The notes beneath the pieces were generated by a model. That model saw nothing but the letters and a program-made list of their open reading frames with translations, had not been told where the DNA came from and did not search any database. A DNA stretch of 63,739 nucleotides, filler included, from a bacterium (GTDB lineage: Bacteria; JBDRGX01): the NCBI GenBank assembly GCA_043817485.1. It is 7 parts of 7 records of this genome, joined end to end, with 100 filler letters (N's around TTAATTAATTAA, not from the genome) between each part and the next. Parts side by side here need not be neighbours in the genome. Positions count along the whole stretch, not along the records: positions 17,504 to 25,412 come from JBDRGX010000046.1; 6 more parts are not named here. One strand, given 5' to 3'. Both the position numbers and the translations under genes were made by a program. This document shows, piece after piece, positions 7,489 to 53,512 of the stretch; position 1 is the first letter of the stretch; every line of letters starts with the position of its first letter.

Positions 7489-7664
7489 ATGTAAAATATT
7501 CAAAAATTACATTAAGCATTTAACAAAATTTTTTATAAAAAATATATTTTAAAATTATTTATTGNNNNNNNNNNNNNNNNNNNNNNNNNNNNNNNNNNNN
7601 NNNNNNNNTTAATTAATTAANNNNNNNNNNNNNNNNNNNNNNNNNNNNNNNNNNNNNNNNNNNN

Positions 7665-7777
7665 GTGTCATAACTCTAAATCTAGACATCCACACCACAA
7701 CATATTGTGGTTTTGTGGAAACCTACCACTTTATGTTGTAAAACAATTGCCGTGAAATTGAATTATGACACAGTCTC
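7665..7777. mobile_element. MITE-like element, copy A (left 6 bp cut by contig end), with two NrdR-box-like sites
   Basis: Ends gtgtcataa / ttatgacacagtctc are inverted repeats; internal ccacaacatattgtgg (7695) and ccactttatgttgtaa (7726). Confidence 0.7.
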
Positions 7778-7792
7778 ATGAATTGCCCCTAC
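7778..7792. repeat. Right half of a GTAG-type REP palindrome
   Basis: atgaattgcccctac is the right arm of gtaggggcaattcatgaattgcccctac. Confidence 0.65.
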
Positions 7793-7802
7793 AAAATTAT
7801 TT

Positions 7803-9230
7803 TTACTTCAACATCAACATTTTTTTACAATTTTGTGTTTTGTTATCAACAATTGTTTCATAAAAATACATTCCTGATGAAACTTCTTTTCCTAAATTAT
7901 CTCTTCCATCCTAATATACTGAATTATTTGAATTATTTGTAATTACTTCTCTAACTACTTGACCAAGGATATTGTATATTTTTACTTTAACATTTGAGGT
8001 TTGATTTTTGTTGTTTGAAATTTCTATTGGAATATAACATTCGGGATTAAATGGATTTGGATAATTTTTAATTTTAGATAAATTCAAAGAATCTTTATTA
8101 TAATTTAAAGAAGTGTCTTCTACTGTTAATTTAATAGAATTTAATATAGCACCCTTAGGATAACTCGGAACATATTCTGGAGGATAATGAGGATTACTAT
8201 AGTTAGAGGTATGATCATTAAAAGCAACTAATCTAAATTCTATTGTTTTGCCATCTACTTCTGCTTCTATAAAGCACTGTTCGCCTTCTCCCCAAACATC
8301 ATTTTCTTGAAGACCTAATCTATATCTTTGTTCAGGGTTATTATATGATTCAAGAAAGTTACTACTGTATGTCCAAGTTCCATTTGCACCACCTGAAGGT
8401 ACTTCTATAAAATACATACCATGTCTTAATGTTCTATAATATATATGATCATGCCCATGTAACCAAGTAATAGTAAAATATTTTTTATTGGGATATTTAT
8501 TTGCAAAATAATCATACATCTTCTTTAATTTTTGAATACTATTATCACTATATCGATGACAAGGAGCATAAGCACTTACATGCTGAAAAAGAACAATGTG
8601 ATCTATTTTCCCAATAGCACTATTAAAAAGATCATCTAAATAATTTTGTAATTCTGTCATTCTATTATTATTTATAGGATCATCCCAAATATATTGACCA
8701 TTTTTATAAATAAATTGGCTGGCATTTATACTAATAAACCTAACATTTCCAAAATCAAAATAATAATCCATATTTTCTTTAGTTTGTCCAGGAAATCCTG
8801 ATGCTTTTAAATATTTATCAAAATCTTCATCATTACTACTATCACGATGAACGTCATGATTTCCAGGACTAATAAAGTGAGCAATTTGTGAACGATTCGT
8901 TCCCCATAATTCTTCAAACTTAGCCCAGTCTTTTACATCTGTTCCAGCACCATACCAACTAATTACATCACCATTATTTAGTAATAATTGAATATTTCTT
9001 TCTAATAAAGTAGATTGAAATATATTTGTTTTTTCAAGATATTCAGCTGTTACTGTTGATGCTGTATGAATGTCTGCTGTAGCTCCAAATTTCCATTTTC
9101 CCGTAGGAGAAGGTTTTTGGGATAAAATATCCATAGGATTATATCCAAAAACATTGGTAGCAATAAAAACCAACAGAAAAATTAAAACTCTTTTATATAT
9201 CTTTATATACTTTTTGTTAATTTTTTTCAT
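7803..9230 (-). pseudogene. Secreted calcineurin-like metallophosphoesterase with FlgD-Ig/T9SS-type tail, interrupted by in-frame TAG at 7911-7913
   Basis: ADIH, GDV, PGNHD, HGHDH motifs; NYPNPFNP; the frame continues past TAG as DGRDNLGKEVSSGMYFY..MLMLK, matching the paralog at 42155. Confidence 0.8.
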
Positions 9231-17403: not shown

Positions 17404-17503
17404 NNNNNNNNNNNNNNNNNNNNNNNNNNNNNNNNNNNNNNNNNNNNTTAATTAATTAANNNNNNNNNNNNNNNNNNNNNNNNNNNNNNNNNNNNNNNNN
17501 NNN

Positions 17504-17625
17504 CCAAATCCTTCAACCTAATCCTTAAGGATTAGGTTGAAGGATTTGGTTGAAGAAAAAAGAATGACAGCAATCACGCGTAGTCAACCGAATCCTTAAG
17601 GATTCGGTTAAAGAATTCGGTTGAA
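17504..17625. repeat. Cluster of perfect CCTTAAGG-centred palindromes, one nested inside another
   Basis: 46-bp palindrome 17504..17549; 24-bp palindrome 17586..17609 followed by an extra arm. Confidence 0.8.
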
Positions 17626-17766
17626 GGAAAATTGGGATTCATTATTCTAATATTAATTGTGTAAAAGTATGGAAAGAAGTAAAACTTGAGCAAGTTATTT
17701 TTGTTATCAATAAAAAAAAGTCGTCAAAATATACTTCTGGCAAATTTGAAAGGTGATAATGTATGG

Positions 17767-17796
17767 TTGAACCGACGATTTAAATCGTCGGTTCAA
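17767..17796. repeat. 30-bp perfect palindrome upstream of pyrG
   Basis: ttgaaccgacgattt|aaatcgtcggttcaa. Confidence 0.8.
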
Positions 17797-17869
17797 GGTG
17801 TTGGTTCACAAGGTATCTGTCCAAGAATAAGGATTATTTAACAACAGTAATGTTGAAAGGAATAAATAT

Positions 17870-19483
17870 ATGGCTAAATACATTATTATTACTGGTGGCG
17901 TTGTTTCAAGTTTAGGAAAAGGAATAGCTTCTGCTTCTATTGGAAAACTTTTAGAAGAACATGGTTTAAAAATTTCTTTAATAAAATGCGATCCTTATAT
18001 TAATATTGATCCTGGAACAATGAGTCCATTTCAACATGGTGAAGTTTATGTCACAGATGATGGTGCAGAAACAGATTTGGATTTAGGACATTATGCTCGA
18101 TTTACAAATACTTCTTTAGCCAAAGAAAATAATATTACTACTGGTAAAATTTATTATTCTGTTATTATGAAAGAAAGAAAAGGAGATTATTTAGGAAAAA
18201 CAGTTCAAGTAATTCCTCATATTACTACTGAAATTAAAAATTCTATTAAACAAATTTCTCATAAAAAAGATTTAGATGTAGTAATAGTAGAAATAGGTGG
18301 AACAGTAGGCGATATTGAAAGTCTTCCTTTCTTAGAAGCAGTTAGACAAATAATGTTAGAAGAAGGACAAAACAATGCTATTAATATTCATTTAACTTTA
18401 ATTCCCTATATTAAAAGTGCTGATGAAATTAAAACAAAACCTACTCAACATAGTGTAGGGAAATTAAGAGAAATAGGAATTCAACCAAATATTCTTTTAT
18501 GTCGAACAGAAAAACCTTTTTCTTCAGAAGTAAAATCTAAAATTGCTTTATTTTGCAATGTTAAAGAAAATGCTGTTATTCAAGCATTAGATACAGATAA
18601 TATTTATGAAATTCCTATTATGTTTCAAAAAGATAACCTTGATAATTTAATTATAAATATGCTTGATTTAAAAATAAAACCATGTAAAAAATATCTTGAA
18701 GAATGGAAAAAAATTATTAATATTCAAAAAAATTTAAAACAAACAATAACAATTGCTGTAGTTGGTAAATATATTATACTTCAAGATGCTTATAAATCAA
18801 TTTATGAATCTTTAACACATGCGGGAATTGCTAATAATGTAGAAATTAAACTTAAAAAAGTAGATTCAGAAAAAATTGAAAAAGAAGGAGCAAAAAAATA
18901 TTTACAAGATGTTCAAGGAATTCTTATTCCAGGTGGTTTTGGATCAAGAGGAATTGAAGGGAAAATTGAAGCTGTAAAATTTGCGAGAGAAAATAAAATT
19001 CCTTTTTTTGGAATATGTTTAGGTATGCAAATAGCAGTAATAGAATTTGCTCGAAATGTTTGTGGATTTTTAAAAGCAAATTCAACTGAATTTGAAAAAA
19101 ATACTCCTTATCCAGTAATTAGTCTTCTTGAAAACCAAAAAAATATAAAAGATAAAGGTGGAACAATGCGATTAGGTGCTTATTTGTGTTCTCTTGAAAA
19201 AAACACACATTCTTTTCTTGCTTATGAAAATATAAAAATTTACGAAAGACATAGACATAGATATGAATTTAATAATAAATATAAAAATTTAATGAAAAAA
19301 AAAGGACTTGTAATTGCTGGAATTCATCCTAAAGGAAATTTAGTAGAAATAATTGAATTAAAAAATCATCCATGGTTTTTGGCTTGTCAATTTCATCCAG
19401 AATTTAAGTCTAAACCAGATAATGCACATCCTTTATTTAAGTCTTTCATAGAAGCAATTTTGAAACAAAAAAACATATTATAA
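17870..19483 (+). CDS. pyrG: CTP synthase
   Basis: [54 protein letters not shown]. Confidence 0.98.
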
Positions 19484-19548
19484 AATTTTTCTTGACTTTT
19501 AAAATACAATAAAATATTTTTTAGTTTTTACTTTTATAATGGAAAAAA

Positions 19549-20280
19549 ATGAAAATAGAATATGAAATAAAAACTAATGTTGGAAAAATAAGAAAATTGA
19601 ATGAAGATAATTTTCTTGCTATTCCTTCTATGAATTTTTTTGTTGTTGCTGATGGAATGGGTGGACATAAATGTGGAGAAATAGCAAGTAAAATAGCAGT
19701 AAATACTTTAAAAGAAATATTATTATTATATAAAAAAAATGCAGAAAAAAATGAAGAAAAAATGTTAATAGAAGCAATAGCAATTGCCAATAATGAAATT
19801 TATGAACAATCAATAAAAAATGAATTTGCAAAAGGAATGGGAACTACAATTACATCAGTTTTAATTAAAAATGATGTAATTTATTTTGCCAATGTAGGAG
19901 ATAGCCGAACTTATCTTATACGAAATTCTTCAATTCAACAAAAAACAGATGACCATTCTTGGGTCTATGATCAAGTTAAAAATAATCTTCTTTCTAAAGA
20001 AGAAGCAAGAGTTCATAAATATAGAAATATAATTACACGAGCTTTAGGCATAGAAAAAAATATAAAAGCAGATATATTTAAAGAAAATTTACAAGAAGGA
20101 GATATTTTGCTTTTATGTTCTGATGGCTTAAATACTATGTTAGAAGATGAAAAAATTAAAAATATTATTATAGAAAATAGTAATAATCTTAAAAAATGTT
20201 GTCAAAAATTAATTGATGAAGCAAATAATAAAGGAGGTGAAGATAATATTACTATAATTGTAGTTAAAGTTAAAAAATAA
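19549..20280 (+). CDS. PP2C-family Ser/Thr protein phosphatase (Stp1/PrpC-like)
   Basis: NEDN, VADGMGGH, GMGTT, NVGDSR, LCSDGL, GGEDNIT. Confidence 0.93.
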   Translation: MKIEYEIKTNVGKIRKLNEDNFLAIPSMNFFVVADGMGGHKCGEIASKIAVNTLKEILLLYKKNAEKNEEKMLIEAIAIANNEIYEQSIKNEFAKGMGTTITSVLIKNDVIYFANVGDSRTYLIRNSSIQQKTDDHSWVYDQVKNNLLSKEEARVHKYRNIITRALGIEKNIKADIFKENLQEGDILLLCSDGLNTMLEDEKIKNIIIENSNNLKKCCQKLIDEANNKGGEDNITIIVVKVKK

Positions 20281-20330
20281 ATATTGTTTAAAATTATAAA
20301 ATTGTAATTTTAATTTTTAAGGAGAAATAA

Positions 20331-21602
20331 ATGGTAAAAGAAACAGAAGTAACAAAAGAAAAGAGTGAAGGTGGAATTACAAGTGCTTATGCTACAGGAG
20401 ATCAATGGTGGCCTAAAATAAAAGTTCCTTATCTTTTTTTTGGATCTATTTTTGATGAAGAAGAAGAAAAAGCAGTTCTTGCTGCGATGAAACAAGATTC
20501 ATTAACTATGGGAGCAAATACAGCAGCTTTTCAAAAAGAATTTGCAGCATATACTGGTGTTAAACATGCTTTTGCTACTACAAGTTGCACAACAGCAATG
20601 CATGTAGCAACTCAAGTTTTTAATATAAACGCTGGAGACGAAGTAATTGTAACACCAAATACTTTTATTGCTACAAGTTTAGTAATTTTAAAAGAAGGAG
20701 CAATCCCAGTCTATGTTGACATTGATCCCAAAACTTATAATATTGATCCTAATAAAATTGAAGCAAAAATAACTCCAAAAACAAAAGCAATTTATGTAGT
20801 TCATTATGCTGGATTAATGTGTGATATGGATCCAATTATGGAAATTGCTCGCAAACATAATCTTTATGTTTTAGAAGATTGTGCACATGCTCCAGGAGCA
20901 GAATATAAAGGAAGAAAAGCTGGATCAATCGGAGATATAGGTTGTTTTAGTTTTCATTCTTTGAAAAATATGACTACTTTAGGCGAAGGTGGAATGATTA
21001 CTACTAATAGAGATGATTTTGTAAAACCAATAAGTATGTTAAGATGTATGAATCTTCAAGAATGGTCAGAACATAAAAGAACAGAAGATTATTGGTATCC
21101 TTCTCATTTTGATGTAGATGATGTAAATGGAAAATGGGGTTGTAATTACAGAATGAATGAATGTCAAGCAGCAGTAGGTAGAACACAACTTAAAAAATTA
21201 GATATGTTAAGTGCAAAAAGACAAGAAATTGGTAGATATATAACAAATGGTTTAAAAGGAGTTGAAGGAATTGAAATAACTTCAGAAGTTGAGAATAGTA
21301 AACATGTATATCATCTTTATACTGTTTGTGTTAAAGAAGAAATATTGGGCGTAGATAGAGATACTTTTTTAAGAGTACTTTATCGTGAAGAAGGAGTTCA
21401 AGGAATTCTTCATTATGAACCTAATTATATGTTCACTGGTCTACAAAAAACTGGTAGATATAAAAAAGGCGATTGTCCAATTGCAGAAAAATTCTTTTAT
21501 AAAGAACAATTTAATGTTCCTATGCATCCTCGTTTAACTAAACAAGAACAAAATGATATTATAGAAGGATTGAAAAATACAGTTAAAAAAGTAAAAAAAT
21601 AA
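20331..21602 (+). CDS. DegT/DnrJ/EryC1/StrS family PLP sugar aminotransferase
   Basis: SCTTAMH, VHYAG, EDCAHA, FSFHSLKNMTTLGEGG, NYRM. Confidence 0.92.
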   Translation: MVKETEVTKEKSEGGITSAYATGDQWWPKIKVPYLFFGSIFDEEEEKAVLAAMKQDSLTMGANTAAFQKEFAAYTGVKHAFATTSCTTAMHVATQVFNINAGDEVIVTPNTFIATSLVILKEGAIPVYVDIDPKTYNIDPNKIEAKITPKTKAIYVVHYAGLMCDMDPIMEIARKHNLYVLEDCAHAPGAEYKGRKAGSIGDIGCFSFHSLKNMTTLGEGGMITTNRDDFVKPISMLRCMNLQEWSEHKRTEDYWYPSHFDVDDVNGKWGCNYRMNECQAAVGRTQLKKLDMLSAKRQEIGRYITNGLKGVEGIEITSEVENSKHVYHLYTVCVKEEILGVDRDTFLRVLYREEGVQGILHYEPNYMFTGLQKTGRYKKGDCPIAEKFFYKEQFNVPMHPRLTKQEQNDIIEGLKNTVKKVKK

Positions 21603-21685
21603 TTTTAGATTATACATTGAAAAAATTGATAACCAAAGTCAACACAGTTTTTAGCGTTTAAATGTGATTTGGTATTACACAAAAC

Positions 21686-21723
21686 AAAAAAAGCAACATA
21701 TGATTAAATATGTTGCTTTTTTT
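21686..21723. terminator. Bidirectional intrinsic terminator between convergent genes
   Basis: aaaaaaagcaacatat...atatgttgcttttttt. Confidence 0.75.
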
Positions 21724-21736
21724 ATTTATATGCAAT

Positions 21737-22705
21737 TTATTTCCATTGTGGAACAGAAAAATTTTCTTTTATATAATTTTGTGCTGGCAAAATATCTTCT
21801 TTAGAAGTTAAATCTGGAACATGTTCTTTCCAAAAAATACATTTAATAGTTTTAAGATTTTTTTCTTGAATTAAAAAATTATTAAATTTTCTTAAAAAAC
21901 TAATTTTTCTTTCAATAAAATCTCTGGTAAAAATTCGCAAATTAGTGTTATAAACCATATTTATTTCTGCAGTTGGTAATTCTTTTTCATCTCTTTCTGG
22001 ATGTTTTTGAACTGTTTCTAAATATGGCATTAAAGCATCATAATGATTTTTCCAAGCATTCATACTAACACCAATTTTTTCATTTTTATCTTTAGCAAAT
22101 TCTATTTGTTTAGAAGTAGGTTTTTCAATAATATCTACTAAATAATCATTTTTTTTTACTGTTACAGCAAATCTTTCAATTCTTTCTTTAGGGAATAAAA
22201 GAGAATCTCTATCATAATCAAGCATTACATTTTCACATGAATCTTCATATAAAGTTTTAAGTGCTTTTGCAGAATATAAATTATCACTGTTAACAATTGC
22301 AAAAACACTTTTTTTAAATTCTGGAAATTGAATTAAAGCTTGATATACAGCATCAGCAGTGCCTAATGGTTTTATTCTTTCTTTAGGAATATATTGAATA
22401 GCATAAGAAATATTTAAACCATAAAAATTATTATTTTTTAATTTTTCGCCATAATAATTTTTTATGGAAAAATCTTTTTCTCCAATAACAATAATTACTT
22501 CATCATATTCAGCTTTTTTAATTTCATAAAGCAAATAATCAAGAAAAGGTCTTTTTCCATCACCTAATCCAATCATTGCTTTAGTTTTTTCATTAGCATC
22601 TTTAATTAAAGATGAATCTAATGATGAAATTTCTGAAGATGATTTTTTCATTCTTGAAGAAATACCACCAGCCAATACAATTATTTTTCTTGACATTGAA
22701 AACAA
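21737..22705 (-). CDS. Sugar-phosphate nucleotidyltransferase family protein
   Basis: LAGGISSRMK, RPFLDYLL, KPLGTADA, NSDNLY, IIEKP. Confidence 0.8.
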   Translation of the reverse strand: MFSMSRKIIVLAGGISSRMKKSSSEISSLDSSLIKDANEKTKAMIGLGDGKRPFLDYLLYEIKKAEYDEVIIVIGEKDFSIKNYYGEKLKNNNFYGLNISYAIQYIPKERIKPLGTADAVYQALIQFPEFKKSVFAIVNSDNLYSAKALKTLYEDSCENVMLDYDRDSLLFPKERIERFAVTVKKNDYLVDIIEKPTSKQIEFAKDKNEKIGVSMNAWKNHYDALMPYLETVQKHPERDEKELPTAEINMVYNTNLRIFTRDFIERKISFLRKFNNFLIQEKNLKTIKCIFWKEHVPDLTSKEDILPAQNYIKENFSVPQWK

Positions 22706-24072
22706 TTCCTTTCAATTTTATCTACTTGAAAACCTAATCCATAACCTTGAATACTATTAGTTTGCACACATCCATCTTTTCTAATGAAAATATTTGGATG
22801 TATTTTAGTTTCAGGATCAGATGTTTTGGGAAAAAATTGTGATGAATTAGATTCAACACCTTTCATTGGATTAAGTCTTGCTCCTAATCCAACTGAATGA
22901 ATTAAAGATAATCCAGGATTAGTTAAATCTTGTATAGTGTAAGGTATTTTTAATTTTTCAGATTTTACTGCATACAACAATGCTGTAGAATGACCTTTGC
23001 AAGTCTTAAGTGCAATTCCAGACCAACCTAATTCTATTGCTAAATCAAAATCTTCCATACCAATTAAACTTTCATCTATAATTACTGGTTTAAGATTACC
23101 TATTTTCCTCATATCATATTTATGTGCTCTTAAATCTCTTTCTGTTGGTTGTTCTACATACAAAAGTTCTTTAAAAGCAATTGGAGATAAATCTTTTAAC
23201 TTCATTAAATATTCTACAATATAATCTGGATGTTCACATTGTTCATTGGTATCAGCAGAAAAATAAAGTTCGTTTTTTCCATATTGAGATTGAATTTCAT
23301 GAGCAATAGAAACTACTTCACAAGTTCTATCCAAATCCCATTTTAAATTATTTCCTTGAAGTTTTATTTTTAAACAAATTAATCCATCTCTTTTAATCCA
23401 TTGATCTAATGTAACTGGAATACCATCTTTAGGATCTTTATCATTTATTTCTGTTTCTCTTAATTTATCTAATCCACCTACTAAATGAAAAACTGGAACT
23501 TTTTCACAATAATCTTTTTTTAAATAATTAGAAATATATTCTCCCTTATAATTATTGCCTAAATAATAAGAAAGATCTTTTTCCATAAATTCTGGACCAT
23601 AACCATCATAAGAAGAAATTTTATTTACATTTCCAAAAGCATCATGTAAAGCAGCATCAATTGGTGATGCACAAACTAAACTTGCTAAAAATGGAAATTC
23701 TTCTATTAAAGAATATTTAGAAGTAATTGCTTTATTTATTTGAACAAAATGTTTTTTAATTTCTAAAAAAATATCTATTGGATGAGAATAATTTTTATAA
23801 TTTTCTGTTAATTTAGAAATTTCAATTACGGCATCTTTCATTGCTTTATCTTTAATTTCATGGGAAATGTCTTTTGTTGGAAATGCCCAAGTATCAGAAA
23901 GAAAAATACTACCCCATCCATAAGCAATTTTTCCATCTTGATTTTCTACTTTTGCCCTTACATGGCAATAAGTAAGTTCATCCATTACTACATTCCCAAA
24001 TTTAAGAGGAACTCTACATACCTCATAACTAAAAAATGGTTTAACCTCTAAAACTTTAATATCTGATTTCAC
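22681..24072 (-). CDS. Enolase-superfamily (mandelate racemase/MLE-like) enzyme
   Basis: DAALHDAFG, LKIKL, ADTNE, VEQP, IIDES, ALKTCKG. Confidence 0.82.
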   Translation of the reverse strand: MKSDIKVLEVKPFFSYEVCRVPLKFGNVVMDELTYCHVRAKVENQDGKIAYGWGSIFLSDTWAFPTKDISHEIKDKAMKDAVIEISKLTENYKNYSHPIDIFLEIKKHFVQINKAITSKYSLIEEFPFLASLVCASPIDAALHDAFGNVNKISSYDGYGPEFMEKDLSYYLGNNYKGEYISNYLKKDYCEKVPVFHLVGGLDKLRETEINDKDPKDGIPVTLDQWIKRDGLICLKIKLQGNNLKWDLDRTCEVVSIAHEIQSQYGKNELYFSADTNEQCEHPDYIVEYLMKLKDLSPIAFKELLYVEQPTERDLRAHKYDMRKIGNLKPVIIDESLIGMEDFDLAIELGWSGIALKTCKGHSTALLYAVKSEKLKIPYTIQDLTNPGLSLIHSVGLGARLNPMKGVESNSSQFFPKTSDPETKIHPNIFIRKDGCVQTNSIQGYGLGFQVDKIERNCFQCQEK

Positions 24073-24109
24073 TGTAAAACTCCTTTTATTAAAAATAAAT
24101 TAGATATAT

Positions 24110-25225
24110 TTAATGATTTAACCCTGTTTTTTTAAATGCTTTCCAAGTATATTTACATCTTGGATTCCAAAAAAGCCATTCTTTAATATCACAATCATAA
24201 CTTGCTTTAATTTGAGCAAAAATTTCATTTTCTCCATAATCATATTTTAAAGAAAAATTTTGAAGCCAAGGTCTTATTTTATATTTTTCTTCTTTTAATT
24301 GTTTTATTGCATCTTGTAAAGATAAAAAAATTATTTTATAAGGATCCTTTTCAGGCACTTTAATATTATAAGAATTTTCATAATAATGAGAAGGATAAAT
24401 CATTGGACAAATAAAATCTACATATTCAGCTATTTTTTTAAAATTTTGACCAATTCCAAAATCTCTTCCAGTAGTAGTTACTCCAAAAACATCTATTGAC
24501 AAAAAACCAAAGAGTCTTAATTCTTTTGATGCTAATTTAACAAAATCTAAAATAGCATCGTCTTTAATTTTATAAAGTTCATTTTTTTCATAACAACAAT
24601 TTTTTAAAATACCTTTATCTGGAAATCTAACATAATCAAAATTTACTTCATCAAAACCTAAATCTAAAGCTTCTTTTGCTAAAGCAATGTTATATTGCCA
24701 AACTGTTTTCATATAAGGATTTGCCCATGAACAACCTGTTTCATCCTTCCAAATTTTTCCATCTACAGTTTTAATAGATAATTCTTTTTTTTGAGAAGAT
24801 AAAATTGGATCTTTAAAAACCACTATTCTCGCAATTTTATAAAGATTATTTTGTTCACAAATAAAAATTATATTTTTTAAATTAGAAATGCGTTTTTCAA
24901 CAGCATTTATTTCATAAGCTAAAGGAATTTTTGTTTCATAACTTACAATTCCATCAGCTTCTTTAAGATCTATGACAACAGAGTTTATTTCAGATTTTTT
25001 TATATTTTCAATTATTTCAAAAAATATTTTTTGTGTTCCTACTACCCAACTTGTTAAATGAATGCCTTTAACATTCTCTGGTTTTTTTCTAATTAATGAA
25101 GTAGGCTTTTCAATTAATAAAGGTTTTTGAATAATTTGAGGAAAAAACAAAATAAAAAAATTTATTAAAAAAATACTTATTAAATACCGATATGTTTTAA
25201 TATAATTTCCTTTCCCATTTCCCAT
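24110..25225 (-). CDS. Putative glycoside hydrolase (DUF4015-like)
   Basis: VKGIHLT, NSVVIDLKE, ARIVVFKD, GFDEVNFDYVRFP, PMIYPSHY, RPWLQ. Confidence 0.85.
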   Translation of the reverse strand: MGNGKGNYIKTYRYLISIFLINFFILFFPQIIQKPLLIEKPTSLIRKKPENVKGIHLTSWVVGTQKIFFEIIENIKKSEINSVVIDLKEADGIVSYETKIPLAYEINAVEKRISNLKNIIFICEQNNLYKIARIVVFKDPILSSQKKELSIKTVDGKIWKDETGCSWANPYMKTVWQYNIALAKEALDLGFDEVNFDYVRFPDKGILKNCCYEKNELYKIKDDAILDFVKLASKELRLFGFLSIDVFGVTTTGRDFGIGQNFKKIAEYVDFICPMIYPSHYYENSYNIKVPEKDPYKIIFLSLQDAIKQLKEEKYKIRPWLQNFSLKYDYGENEIFAQIKASYDCDIKEWLFWNPRCKYTWKAFKKTGLNH

Positions 25226-25288
25226 TTTAATACTTCCATTTTTATTTATCGTTCAATTGGTAAAGGCAAATGATGAGCCCGTGTTGTT

Positions 25289-25307
25289 GTAGAGAGGGCA
25301 ATTCATG
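25289..25307. repeat. Left half of a GTAG-type REP palindrome
   Basis: gtagagagggcaattcatg, complementary to the half-site at 7778..7792. Confidence 0.6.
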
Positions 25308-25412
25308 GAGACTGTGTCGCAATAGAAATTTGGCATGAGAAGTATACAACATGTTGTGCCAATATTAGCAATAAATACTATATATGGGATAGTTTTGCCA
25401 TTAATTATCAAT
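25308..25412. mobile_element. MITE-like element, copy B (right end cut by contig end), with two NrdR-box-like sites
   Basis: Starts gagactgtgtc; atacaacatgttgtgc (25344) and atactatatatgggat (25375) at the same offsets as in copy A. Confidence 0.65.
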
Positions 25413-25610
25413 NNNNNNNNNNNNNNNNNNNNNNNNNNNNNNNNNNNNNNNNNNNNTTAATTAATTAANNNNNNNNNNNNNNNNNNNNNNNNNNNNNNNN
25501 NNNNNNNNNNNNAAAGAGAATCTGTATTAAACAAAACAGTCCAAGAAAAAAAAAGACAAAAAAAATTTGCCAAATTAAGCCCCTTTTAATAAAATAAATA
25601 AAAATTAAAA

Positions 25611-29221: not shown

Positions 29222-29298
29222 TGGTGGGCGGTACTGGATTCGAACCAGTGACCTTTTGCGTGTCGAGCAAATGCTCTAACCAACTGAGCTAACCACCC
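29222..29298 (-). tRNA. tRNA-Val(GAC)
   Basis: Cloverleaf GGGTGGT..TAGCTCAGTTGGTTAGAGC..TTTGC-TCGACAC-GCAAA..GGTTCGAATCC..ACCGCCC-ACCA. Confidence 0.96.
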
Positions 29299-43485: not shown

Positions 43486-43585
43486 NNNNNNNNNNNNNNN
43501 NNNNNNNNNNNNNNNNNNNNNNNNNNNNNTTAATTAATTAANNNNNNNNNNNNNNNNNNNNNNNNNNNNNNNNNNNNNNNNNNNN

Positions 43586-47756: not shown

Positions 47757-47896
47757 NNNNNNNNNNNNNNNNNNNNNNNNNNNNNNNNNNNNNNNNNNNN
47801 TTAATTAATTAANNNNNNNNNNNNNNNNNNNNNNNNNNNNNNNNNNNNNNNNNNNNTTCATAGTAACTCCATTCATGAATAACCTCCTTTTATTTA

Positions 47897-52966: not shown

Positions 52967-53067
52967 NNNNNNNNNNNNNNNNNNNNNNNNNNNNNNNNNN
53001 NNNNNNNNNNTTAATTAATTAANNNNNNNNNNNNNNNNNNNNNNNNNNNNNNNNNNNNNNNNNNNNA

Positions 53068-53484: not shown

Positions 53485-53512
53485 GTAGGGGCAAACGACC
53501 GTTCGCCCCTAT
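53485..53512. repeat. Intact GTAG-type REP palindrome
   Basis: gtaggggcaaacg-ac-cgttcgcccctat. Confidence 0.75.

Follow-up and report, generated by a model that had tools for sequence, protein, structure and literature searches.

What lies at the end of a contig where a GTAG-headed palindrome, cut at its centre just upstream of a three-gene operon, runs directly into a repeat that carries a pair of NrdR-type boxes? A preliminary description of this locus had taken it for the second copy of a MITE that had entered a REP palindrome, and had proposed that such insertions deliver operators to intergenic sites. We addressed this question in the window, by which we mean the whole stretch of 63,739 nucleotides analyzed here, and in the complete assembly from which it derives (146 contigs, 1.416 Mb, 24.8% G+C, 92% completeness), for which all 30 comparison genomes share only the domain and a phylum-level search returned this genome alone. 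The window is composed of seven contigs (C43, C44, C46, C47, C48, C49, and C50) with N44-TTAATTAATTAA-N44 linkers between them, and segments that are neighbors in the window need not be adjacent in the genome. The features on which the following analysis turns are these.

7565-7664, 17404-17503, 25413-25512, 43486-43585, 47757-47856, 52967-53066: artificial contig joins (N44-TTAATTAATTAA-N44), non-genomic
25255-25288: outer module of the composite REP unit (TTGGTAAAGGCAAATGATGAGCCCGTGTTGTTG), on the downstream-gene side in intact units
25289-25307: left half of the REP palindrome, cut at the centre (GTAGAGAGGGCAATTCATG); intact form at C78:17572-17599
25308-25412, plus strand: first 105 bp of the type A non-autonomous element, which stops at the contig end; 14 copies in the assembly
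25308-25323: terminal inverted repeat of the type A element (GAGACTGTGTCGCAAT)
24110-25225, minus strand: DUF4015 gene, with its ATG at 25225
22681-24072, minus strand: enolase-C-like gene, downstream of DUF4015
21737-22705, minus strand: nucleotidyltransferase gene, downstream of the enolase-C-like gene
7665-7777, minus strand: type B/C MITE-like unit of 119 bp, without its first 6 bases (contig start); 11 copies of the outer end
7778-7820: right half of the REP palindrome (ATGAATTGCCCCTAC, 7778-7792) and REP tail (AAAATTATTTTTACTTCAACATCAACA), on the side facing the 3' end of the upstream gene
53485-53512: uninterrupted REP of a second subtype (GTAGGGGCAAACGACCGTTCGCCCCTAT); DNA fold of -6.9 kcal/mol

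At the junction 25307|25308, the half palindrome GTAGAGAGGGCAATTCATG (25289-25307) abuts the terminal repeat GAGACTGTGTCGCAAT, which opens with the 11-mer GAGACTGTGTC (25308-25318). The mirror-image junction, 7777|7778, consists of GACACAGTCTC (7767-7777), where the outer terminal repeat of the type B/C unit ends, followed by ATGAATTGCCCCTAC (7778-7792). Re-reading of the letters confirms the sequence and coordinates of both junctions as first described, and insertion at the CATG centre of a GTAG-headed palindrome is borne out at each; the uninterrupted relative that had been listed at 53485 is present as well, though it is of a related but distinct subtype, with the centre GAAACGACCGTTC instead of AATTCATGAATT. 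Both junctions do lie at contig ends, that in C46 (window 17504-25412) at the 3' end and that in C44 (7665-17403) at the 5' start, because the window is made of seven contigs joined by linkers; the explanation we offer for the assembly break points themselves is that the element is multicopy. The last three bases of the left half, ATG, are a candidate target duplication. ATG is carried by both window junctions, and their assignment to one insertion is only a candidate pairing.

The palindrome is part of a larger REP unit that is oriented with respect to transcription. Ahead of the palindrome, the module TTGGTAAAGGCAAATGATGAGCCCGTGTTGTTG recurs at intact sites in C119, C90, C60, and C104 and at occupied halves in C28, C63, C81, and C109, and the tail AAAATTATTTTTACTTCAACATCAACA also flanks intact palindromes in C15 and C146. 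Intact units share one polarity: the tail, toward the 3' end of the upstream gene, is followed by the palindrome and then by a second, hairpin-like module toward the 5' end of the next gene. With the closest ORF of 90 aa or more as the reference, 10 of the 14 type A ends point to the 5' end of a gene and 10 of the 11 type B ends to a 3' end (combined binomial p 0.004). The REP unit keeps a fixed orientation where it lies between genes of the same direction, and the element is in most cases oriented with respect to it, so that the type A end with its box pair usually points to the 5' end of the next gene. In the window, the box pair lies 119-165 bp from the ATG at 25225, in good agreement with the 120-165 bp estimated earlier for the DUF4015-enolase-nucleotidyltransferase genes, and this upstream position is largely a consequence of REP unit orientation.

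Two further annotations concern the window. A tRNA gene at 29225-29298 on the minus strand is the sole Rfam match in the window at the gathering threshold. The minus-strand gene at 7911-9230 encodes a 439-aa calcineurin-like phosphoesterase with a C-terminal match to Por_Secre_tail (type IX secretion sorting) that, at 25.2 bits, falls just under the Pfam cut-off of 27.

Insertion sites across the assembly

The 11-mer GAGACTGTGTC occurs exactly 34 times in the 1.416-Mb assembly versus ≈0.1 occurrences expected from base composition. A 15-mer rule returned 54 ends: nine are internal copies, always found after the same neighboring repeat, one (C16) was judged a chance match, and 44 are outer ends. 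A script divided the candidates into 24 AATTCAT-type halves, three GAAYRG-type halves, and 18 non-REP flanks; revision of these 18 by eye moved C65 (GGTAAAGGCGAACGCC) to the REP halves and dropped C16. The outcome is that, of the 44 outer ends, 28 adjoin one half of a REP divided at its centre and the remaining 16 lie in non-REP DNA, a pattern that, taken with the frequency of the 11-mer, is far beyond chance. Further REP insertions, whose absence would have counted against the preliminary description, therefore exist in number, and although 16 of the 44 flanks are non-REP, the other 28 are REP halves.

The uninterrupted palindrome is kept at 11 loci, which represent empty sites. One example, GTAGGGGCAATTCATGAATTGCCCCTAC at C78:17572-17599, folds as DNA into a 12-pair stem with a CATG loop at -12.6 kcal/mol, and under a simple rule that calls ORFs from 90 aa upward, all 11 loci fall between ORFs. 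We assign these sequences to REPs because one subtype is represented by 11 intact loci and by 24 halves, other subtypes occur as well, and the palindrome has a GTAG head; a looser regular expression gave 559 matches, was too permissive, and was left out of all counts. Insertions at a single palindrome position coexist with empty sites, which is the behavior of a hairpin- or REP-targeting element. Palindromes of other sequence are also split near their centres in C65, C67, C68, and C78, and together with the 16 ends that lack a REP half, this indicates that the halves come from the target and do not belong to the element.

The opposite assignment, which takes the palindrome halves for the element's own long outer terminal repeat and reads the intact REPs as minimal elements or as scars of excision, with no target preference, has some initial appeal, since long inverted ends look identical to insertion at the centre of a palindrome, and halves (24) do outnumber intact sites (11). 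It is nonetheless very improbable. Sixteen of the 44 ends keep the inner repeat without any REP half, four ends interrupt palindromes that have another sequence, what separates CAT from AGACTG differs among ends (G in 11, GG in five, GC in three, C in four, and GCAG in one), and the intact palindromes sit inside a longer, asymmetric REP unit with fixed polarity to genes.

That the pattern is instead an assembly artefact of chimeric or collapsed contig ends is scarcely credible. Every one of the 14 type A copies does lie within 91-155 bp of a contig end, but short-read assemblers break in this way at true multicopy repeats, complete related units are found inside contigs C75, C102, C146, C15, C78, and C113, and contigs from public runs hold the same sequence together with the REP junction. 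These last come from two of the four public groundwater runs searched, where the element is found at ≥99% identity with both a REP and a non-REP junction; they may derive from the source sample or a neighboring one and are hence not independent support, and the unique flank of C46 was not found in contigs of the four runs. An exact-pattern scan for the type A interior gave no match in public genome contigs and none in metagenome contigs. The same scan for the junction of REP and terminal repeat gave no match in public genome contigs and one in metagenome contigs, and we rejected the latter as a chance 21-mer in an unrelated, G+C-rich contig.

The wider repeat content of this genome offers several further observations. 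Contig C46 holds two more palindromic repeat families, of the TCAACCGAATCCTTAAGGATTCGGTTAA and GTTGAACCGACGATTTAAATCGTCGGTTCAAG types, at 17584-17611 and 17766-17797 (C46:81-108 and 263-294), both of which recur on several other contigs; the hairpin census behind them allowed at most one mismatch and so missed imperfect REPs. The ends at C103:212 and C117:6644 have a common non-REP flank, CTGTCATTTCGAA, which may be another preferred or repeated target. A search with PF01797 (Y1 transposase) found no stand-alone RAYT gene in the assembly, and its sole match (E 3e-10) lies in a 688-aa ORF on C84:1-2068. This ORF is N6-adenine-methyltransferase-like, with the Y1/HUH domain embedded in frame.

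Transposon family and structure of the element

Only one insertion sequence in the assembly, C104:4864-6132, has these ends (GAGACTGTGTCGTAAT and GAAATGTGTCGTAAT) and a transposase gene. The gene is broken by a frameshift near its start and by a TAG stop; its pieces match NF033551 (IS1182 family) with E values of 2e-42 and 3e-8 and PF13751 (DDE_Tnp_1_6) with 8e-20, the fragmentation of the gene leaving the NF033551 score under the curated cut-off. The terminal inverted repeats of the window element are those of this IS1182-family IS. Beyond C104, the assembly contains only further transposase fragments and no intact gene, and for this reason we only infer mobilization in trans. Three identical ends of another subtype, found at contig ends in C67, C89, and C105, probably mark an active IS whose interior is unassembled.

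These findings make it very probable that the locus is an IS1182-family derivative integrated in the CATG centre of a 28-bp GTAG-headed REP palindrome. The element would then be a multicopy, non-autonomous derivative of such an IS, with positions 25308-25412 as its REP-proximal end. A DDE transposase supplied in trans, its probable source being the unassembled active IS with identical ends at three contig ends, would bind the 16-bp terminal repeats ([G/C]AGACTGTGTC-R-Y-AAT) and join the element to the centre or loop of a hairpin-forming palindrome, recognizing structure rather than sequence and duplicating about 3 bp, here ATG. The terminal repeats held in common, the position of insertion, the empty sites, and the multicopy state are directly observed, the last from 14 type A copies and 11 type B ends that each have a different flank. 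That REP targeting is real and non-random, and that it is explained by the element's transposon family, is well supported.

The size of the target duplication is best read as 3 bp, yet it is not uniform. Among four complete short relatives inside contigs, taken with an 11-bp reading of the terminal repeat, the C146 element is flanked by ATA and ATA and that of C75 by ATG and ATG, whereas C102 has ATG versus ATA (two of three bases alike) and the flanks of a 217-bp element in C67 agree only in AT (2 bp). The short ATG duplication proposed earlier is thus plausible, with matching triplets at two of the four. Wherever both flanks are visible, in C75 and in the 217-bp C67 element, both palindrome halves are retained, which speaks against replacement of the stem-loop of the IS1272 type.

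The earlier designation of the window sequence as a MITE copy stands in part. Its 105 bases are collinear with complete 118-119-bp MITEs, with 81 of 104 positions identical to C102 and 78 of 105 to C75 (74-78%). These complete relatives (C75, C102, C146, and the B/C unit) measure 118-119 bp and have two terminal repeats and no transposase gene. In 12 of the 14 type A copies, those assembled that far, the inner terminal repeat is instead replaced by TGTATATATAAAGAC or CGTATATATAAAGAC, after which the sequence continues into a module of 50-75 bp, for a repeat of at least 154 bp. It follows that the type A piece in the window may be one end of a larger composite. The B/C unit at 7665-7777 has both terminal repeats, and its inner side is always fused to a homologue of the type A module, in every B/C copy that reaches that far (nine internal ends; C31 and C44 start inside the unit).

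This arrangement raises the prospect that both window junctions belong to a single insertion, one at each of its ends, with C46 continuing into C44, and that A and B are the ends of a composite of ≈300 bp made up of the A unit, a middle module of 50-75 bp, and the B/C unit. Several features favor such a structure: ATG is present on both sides and the flanks are complementary sides of one composite REP unit; the gene order fits (3' end of the metallophosphoesterase gene, B to A, 5' end of DUF4015); the copy numbers of A and B are close (14 and 11); the modules that follow type A and precede the B/C unit are homologous and suitably oriented; and type A has no inner terminal repeat. On the other hand, no contig of the assembly, or of the public groundwater data followed as far as base 105 of the element, bridges A to B, in four of 11 B copies it is the leader repeat of a DUF559-type gene and not A that precedes the module, and about five other B ends match C46 equally well. 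We consider a single insertion doubtful, with a modest chance of being correct. The repeat fused to the B/C unit (C78:40681-41062, C113, C2, and C15) consists of a 52-bp module and one or two leaders of ≈140 bp, each leader containing two small hairpins and lying ahead of a DUF559-like ORF. One copy of the leader-plus-module repeat, at C92:32240-32798, occurs without a B/C unit.

NrdR-type box pairs

Each of the two elements in the window contains two 16-bp boxes, located as follows.

25344-25359: NrdR-type box 1 (ATACAACATGTTGTGC), 6/6 key positions
25360-25374: 15-bp linker between boxes 1 and 2
25375-25390: NrdR-type box 2 (ATACTATATATGGGAT), 6/6 key positions
25341-25371, minus strand: weak, outward-facing promoter-like motif TTGCTA-N19-TATACT, overlapping box 1, read from sequence
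7695-7710 and 7726-7741: boxes of the B/C unit (6/6 and 5/6 key positions, respectively), with a 15-bp linker

NrdR sites are described as two partly palindromic 16-bp boxes with C4, A6, A8, T9, T11, and G13 and a linker of 15-16 bp, both boxes being required by NrdR, for which heterologous binding is also described (PMC13584703). The type A pair of the window agrees at 12 of 12 key positions and the B/C pair at 11 of 12; judged by its sequence, the type A pair is the full signature of an NrdR operator. Genome-wide, 30 pairs score at least 11/12 versus 4-16 (mean 8.3) in 20 block shuffles. Eighteen of the 30 are in the elements, one is upstream of nrdD, and 11 are elsewhere, which is about chance level; all 10 perfect pairs of the genome are inside the elements. 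Between MITE clades that are 50-56% identical, only the ends and the boxes stand out as conserved islands.

Two other origins for the boxes were considered. We rejected a by-product of arm symmetry, in that the single-stranded DNA of the C75 element pairs only at its ends (z -1.85). General transposase-binding sites are a weakened candidate: no box pair is present in IS remnants or in box-less relatives, and a variant with a broken box 1 is present at five different loci.

The more ambitious proposal is that the box pair is a working NrdR operator and that REP insertion makes downstream operons responsive to dNTPs, perhaps through an outward promoter. Beyond the agreement at all key positions with a 15-bp linker and the confinement of perfect pairs to the elements, this proposal draws on nrdD (class III, with two ATP cones), the only ribonucleotide reductase gene found, whose upstream region (C32:11975-12070) has an 11/12 pair with a 16-bp linker. 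The conservation of boxes and ends in arms that are otherwise not complementary, the type A ends that face gene 5' ends, and the outward TTGCTA-N19-TATACT motif that overlaps box 1 are also in its favor. Against these points, the assembly yielded no nrdR gene with TIGR00244 (0 matches), with tblastn of two NrdR proteins (E above 0.5), or with the ATP-cone model, which had no match outside NrdD; since the assembly is 92% complete, this is no proof of absence. In addition, a 2-bp deletion breaks box 1 in five of the 14 type A copies, at five different loci (C58, C63, C67, C68, and C81), although NrdR is reported to need both boxes (PMC13584703), and the distance to the next start codon varies from ≈85 to 540 bp. 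The same deletion shortens the TTGCTA/TATACT spacer from 19 to 17 nt; the promoter scan reported the motif only in the C58 deletion variant, with 9/12 matches and at noise level (five versus 3.5 expected), and all matches in promoter and terminator scans were at the level of shuffled sequence, with no convincing promoter. REP-unit polarity, finally, accounts for the orientation bias. No ribonucleotide reductase operon adjoins the window pair, the nearest genes being DUF4015, the enolase-like gene, and the nucleotidyltransferase.

On balance, a working operator that makes downstream operons dNTP-responsive is improbable, and the suggestion that REP insertion delivers operators to neighboring genes is not supported by these results, given the failure to find nrdR, the broken box 1 in five of 14 copies, and a placement that follows REP orientation; we regard operator delivery as conjecture. 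The operator-like cargo is nonetheless a real, unexplained feature of the element. Also rather unlikely is the idea that selection maintains a genuine NrdR-type operator pair as the core of the 118-119-bp elements. The host repressor, which bends DNA sharply, might then act as an architectural factor that brings the ends of a short element together, which would tie element mobility to the dNTP state of the cell; alternatively, amplified copies might spread or titrate repressor sites across the genome. In either case this would be the first bacterial MITE family organized around the operator of a global nucleotide sensor and placed into REP hairpins in a fixed orientation relative to the next gene. 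If NrdR does bind these pairs, mobile DNA would be spreading or exploiting the operator of a dNTP sensor.

Relation to known systems

Correia elements of Neisseria are MITEs in which a host-factor binding site occurs together with promoter elements and which can change how neighboring genes are expressed. They resemble the present elements as bacterial MITEs, differ from them in transposon family and in the host factor, which is IHF, and are not known to target REP centres. The literature searched yielded no paper that combines NrdR with MITEs. NrdR operators as described in the excerpted account (PMC13584703) are like the pairs studied here in their two 16-bp boxes, their C4/A6/A8/T9/T11/G13 positions, and their 15-bp linker; they are located at reductase promoters, whereas the present boxes are in a transposable element of a genome in which no nrdR was found.

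A second comparison is with MITEPye1 of Paracoccus yeei, an IS1182-derived MITE with 4-bp direct repeats (PMC11578231). It is likewise small, intergenic, devoid of a transposase gene, and bounded by IS1182-like terminal repeats and short direct repeats; it differs in its 1-3 copies per chromosome and in the 4-bp length of those repeats, and the excerpted account mentions neither REP targeting nor operator-like boxes (PMC11578231).

As the preliminary description noted, some IS families target REP or hairpin DNA, in agreement with PMC1525189 and PMC5678879. REPs are insertion targets for five IS families, IS3, IS110, IS4, IS256, and IS5, with examples that include IS1397 and ISKpn1 (IS3), IS621, ISPpu9, ISPpu10, and ISPa11 (IS110), ISRm22 (IS4), ISRm19, and ISPsy8 (PMC1525189). 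As in the present case, these elements enter a fixed point inside the REP, often in REP clusters, and empty REPs coexist with occupied ones; unlike them, the elements described here are mostly non-autonomous and belong to the IS1182 family, which is absent from the five named in that excerpt (PMC1525189). The host also differs, here being an uncultured lineage.

The closest parallel is IS1272, a member of the IS1182 family that targets inverted-repeat or stem-loop structures of varied sequence; the same report cites a review according to which some IS1182-family members target palindromes (PMC5678879). Shared with IS1272 are a hairpin-forming palindromic target of no single fixed sequence, a transposase of the same family, and insertions that are mostly just downstream of genes, and the tandem end duplication reported for IS1272 resembles the B/C unit with its degenerate neighboring module (PMC5678879). 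IS1272, however, reportedly removes its target stem-loop without producing a duplication (PMC5678879), whereas the halves are kept here and ≈3 bp are apparently duplicated, and the present elements are non-autonomous and carry box pairs. Insertion at the REP centre in this genome is therefore a new example, from a poorly sampled lineage, of a behavior already known for the family. With 28 half-sites occupied, 11 sites empty, and insertions in two or more palindrome subtypes, the genome provides a data set on how IS1182-type transposases choose hairpin centres, a mechanism that published work, in the excerpts consulted, infers from few cases only.
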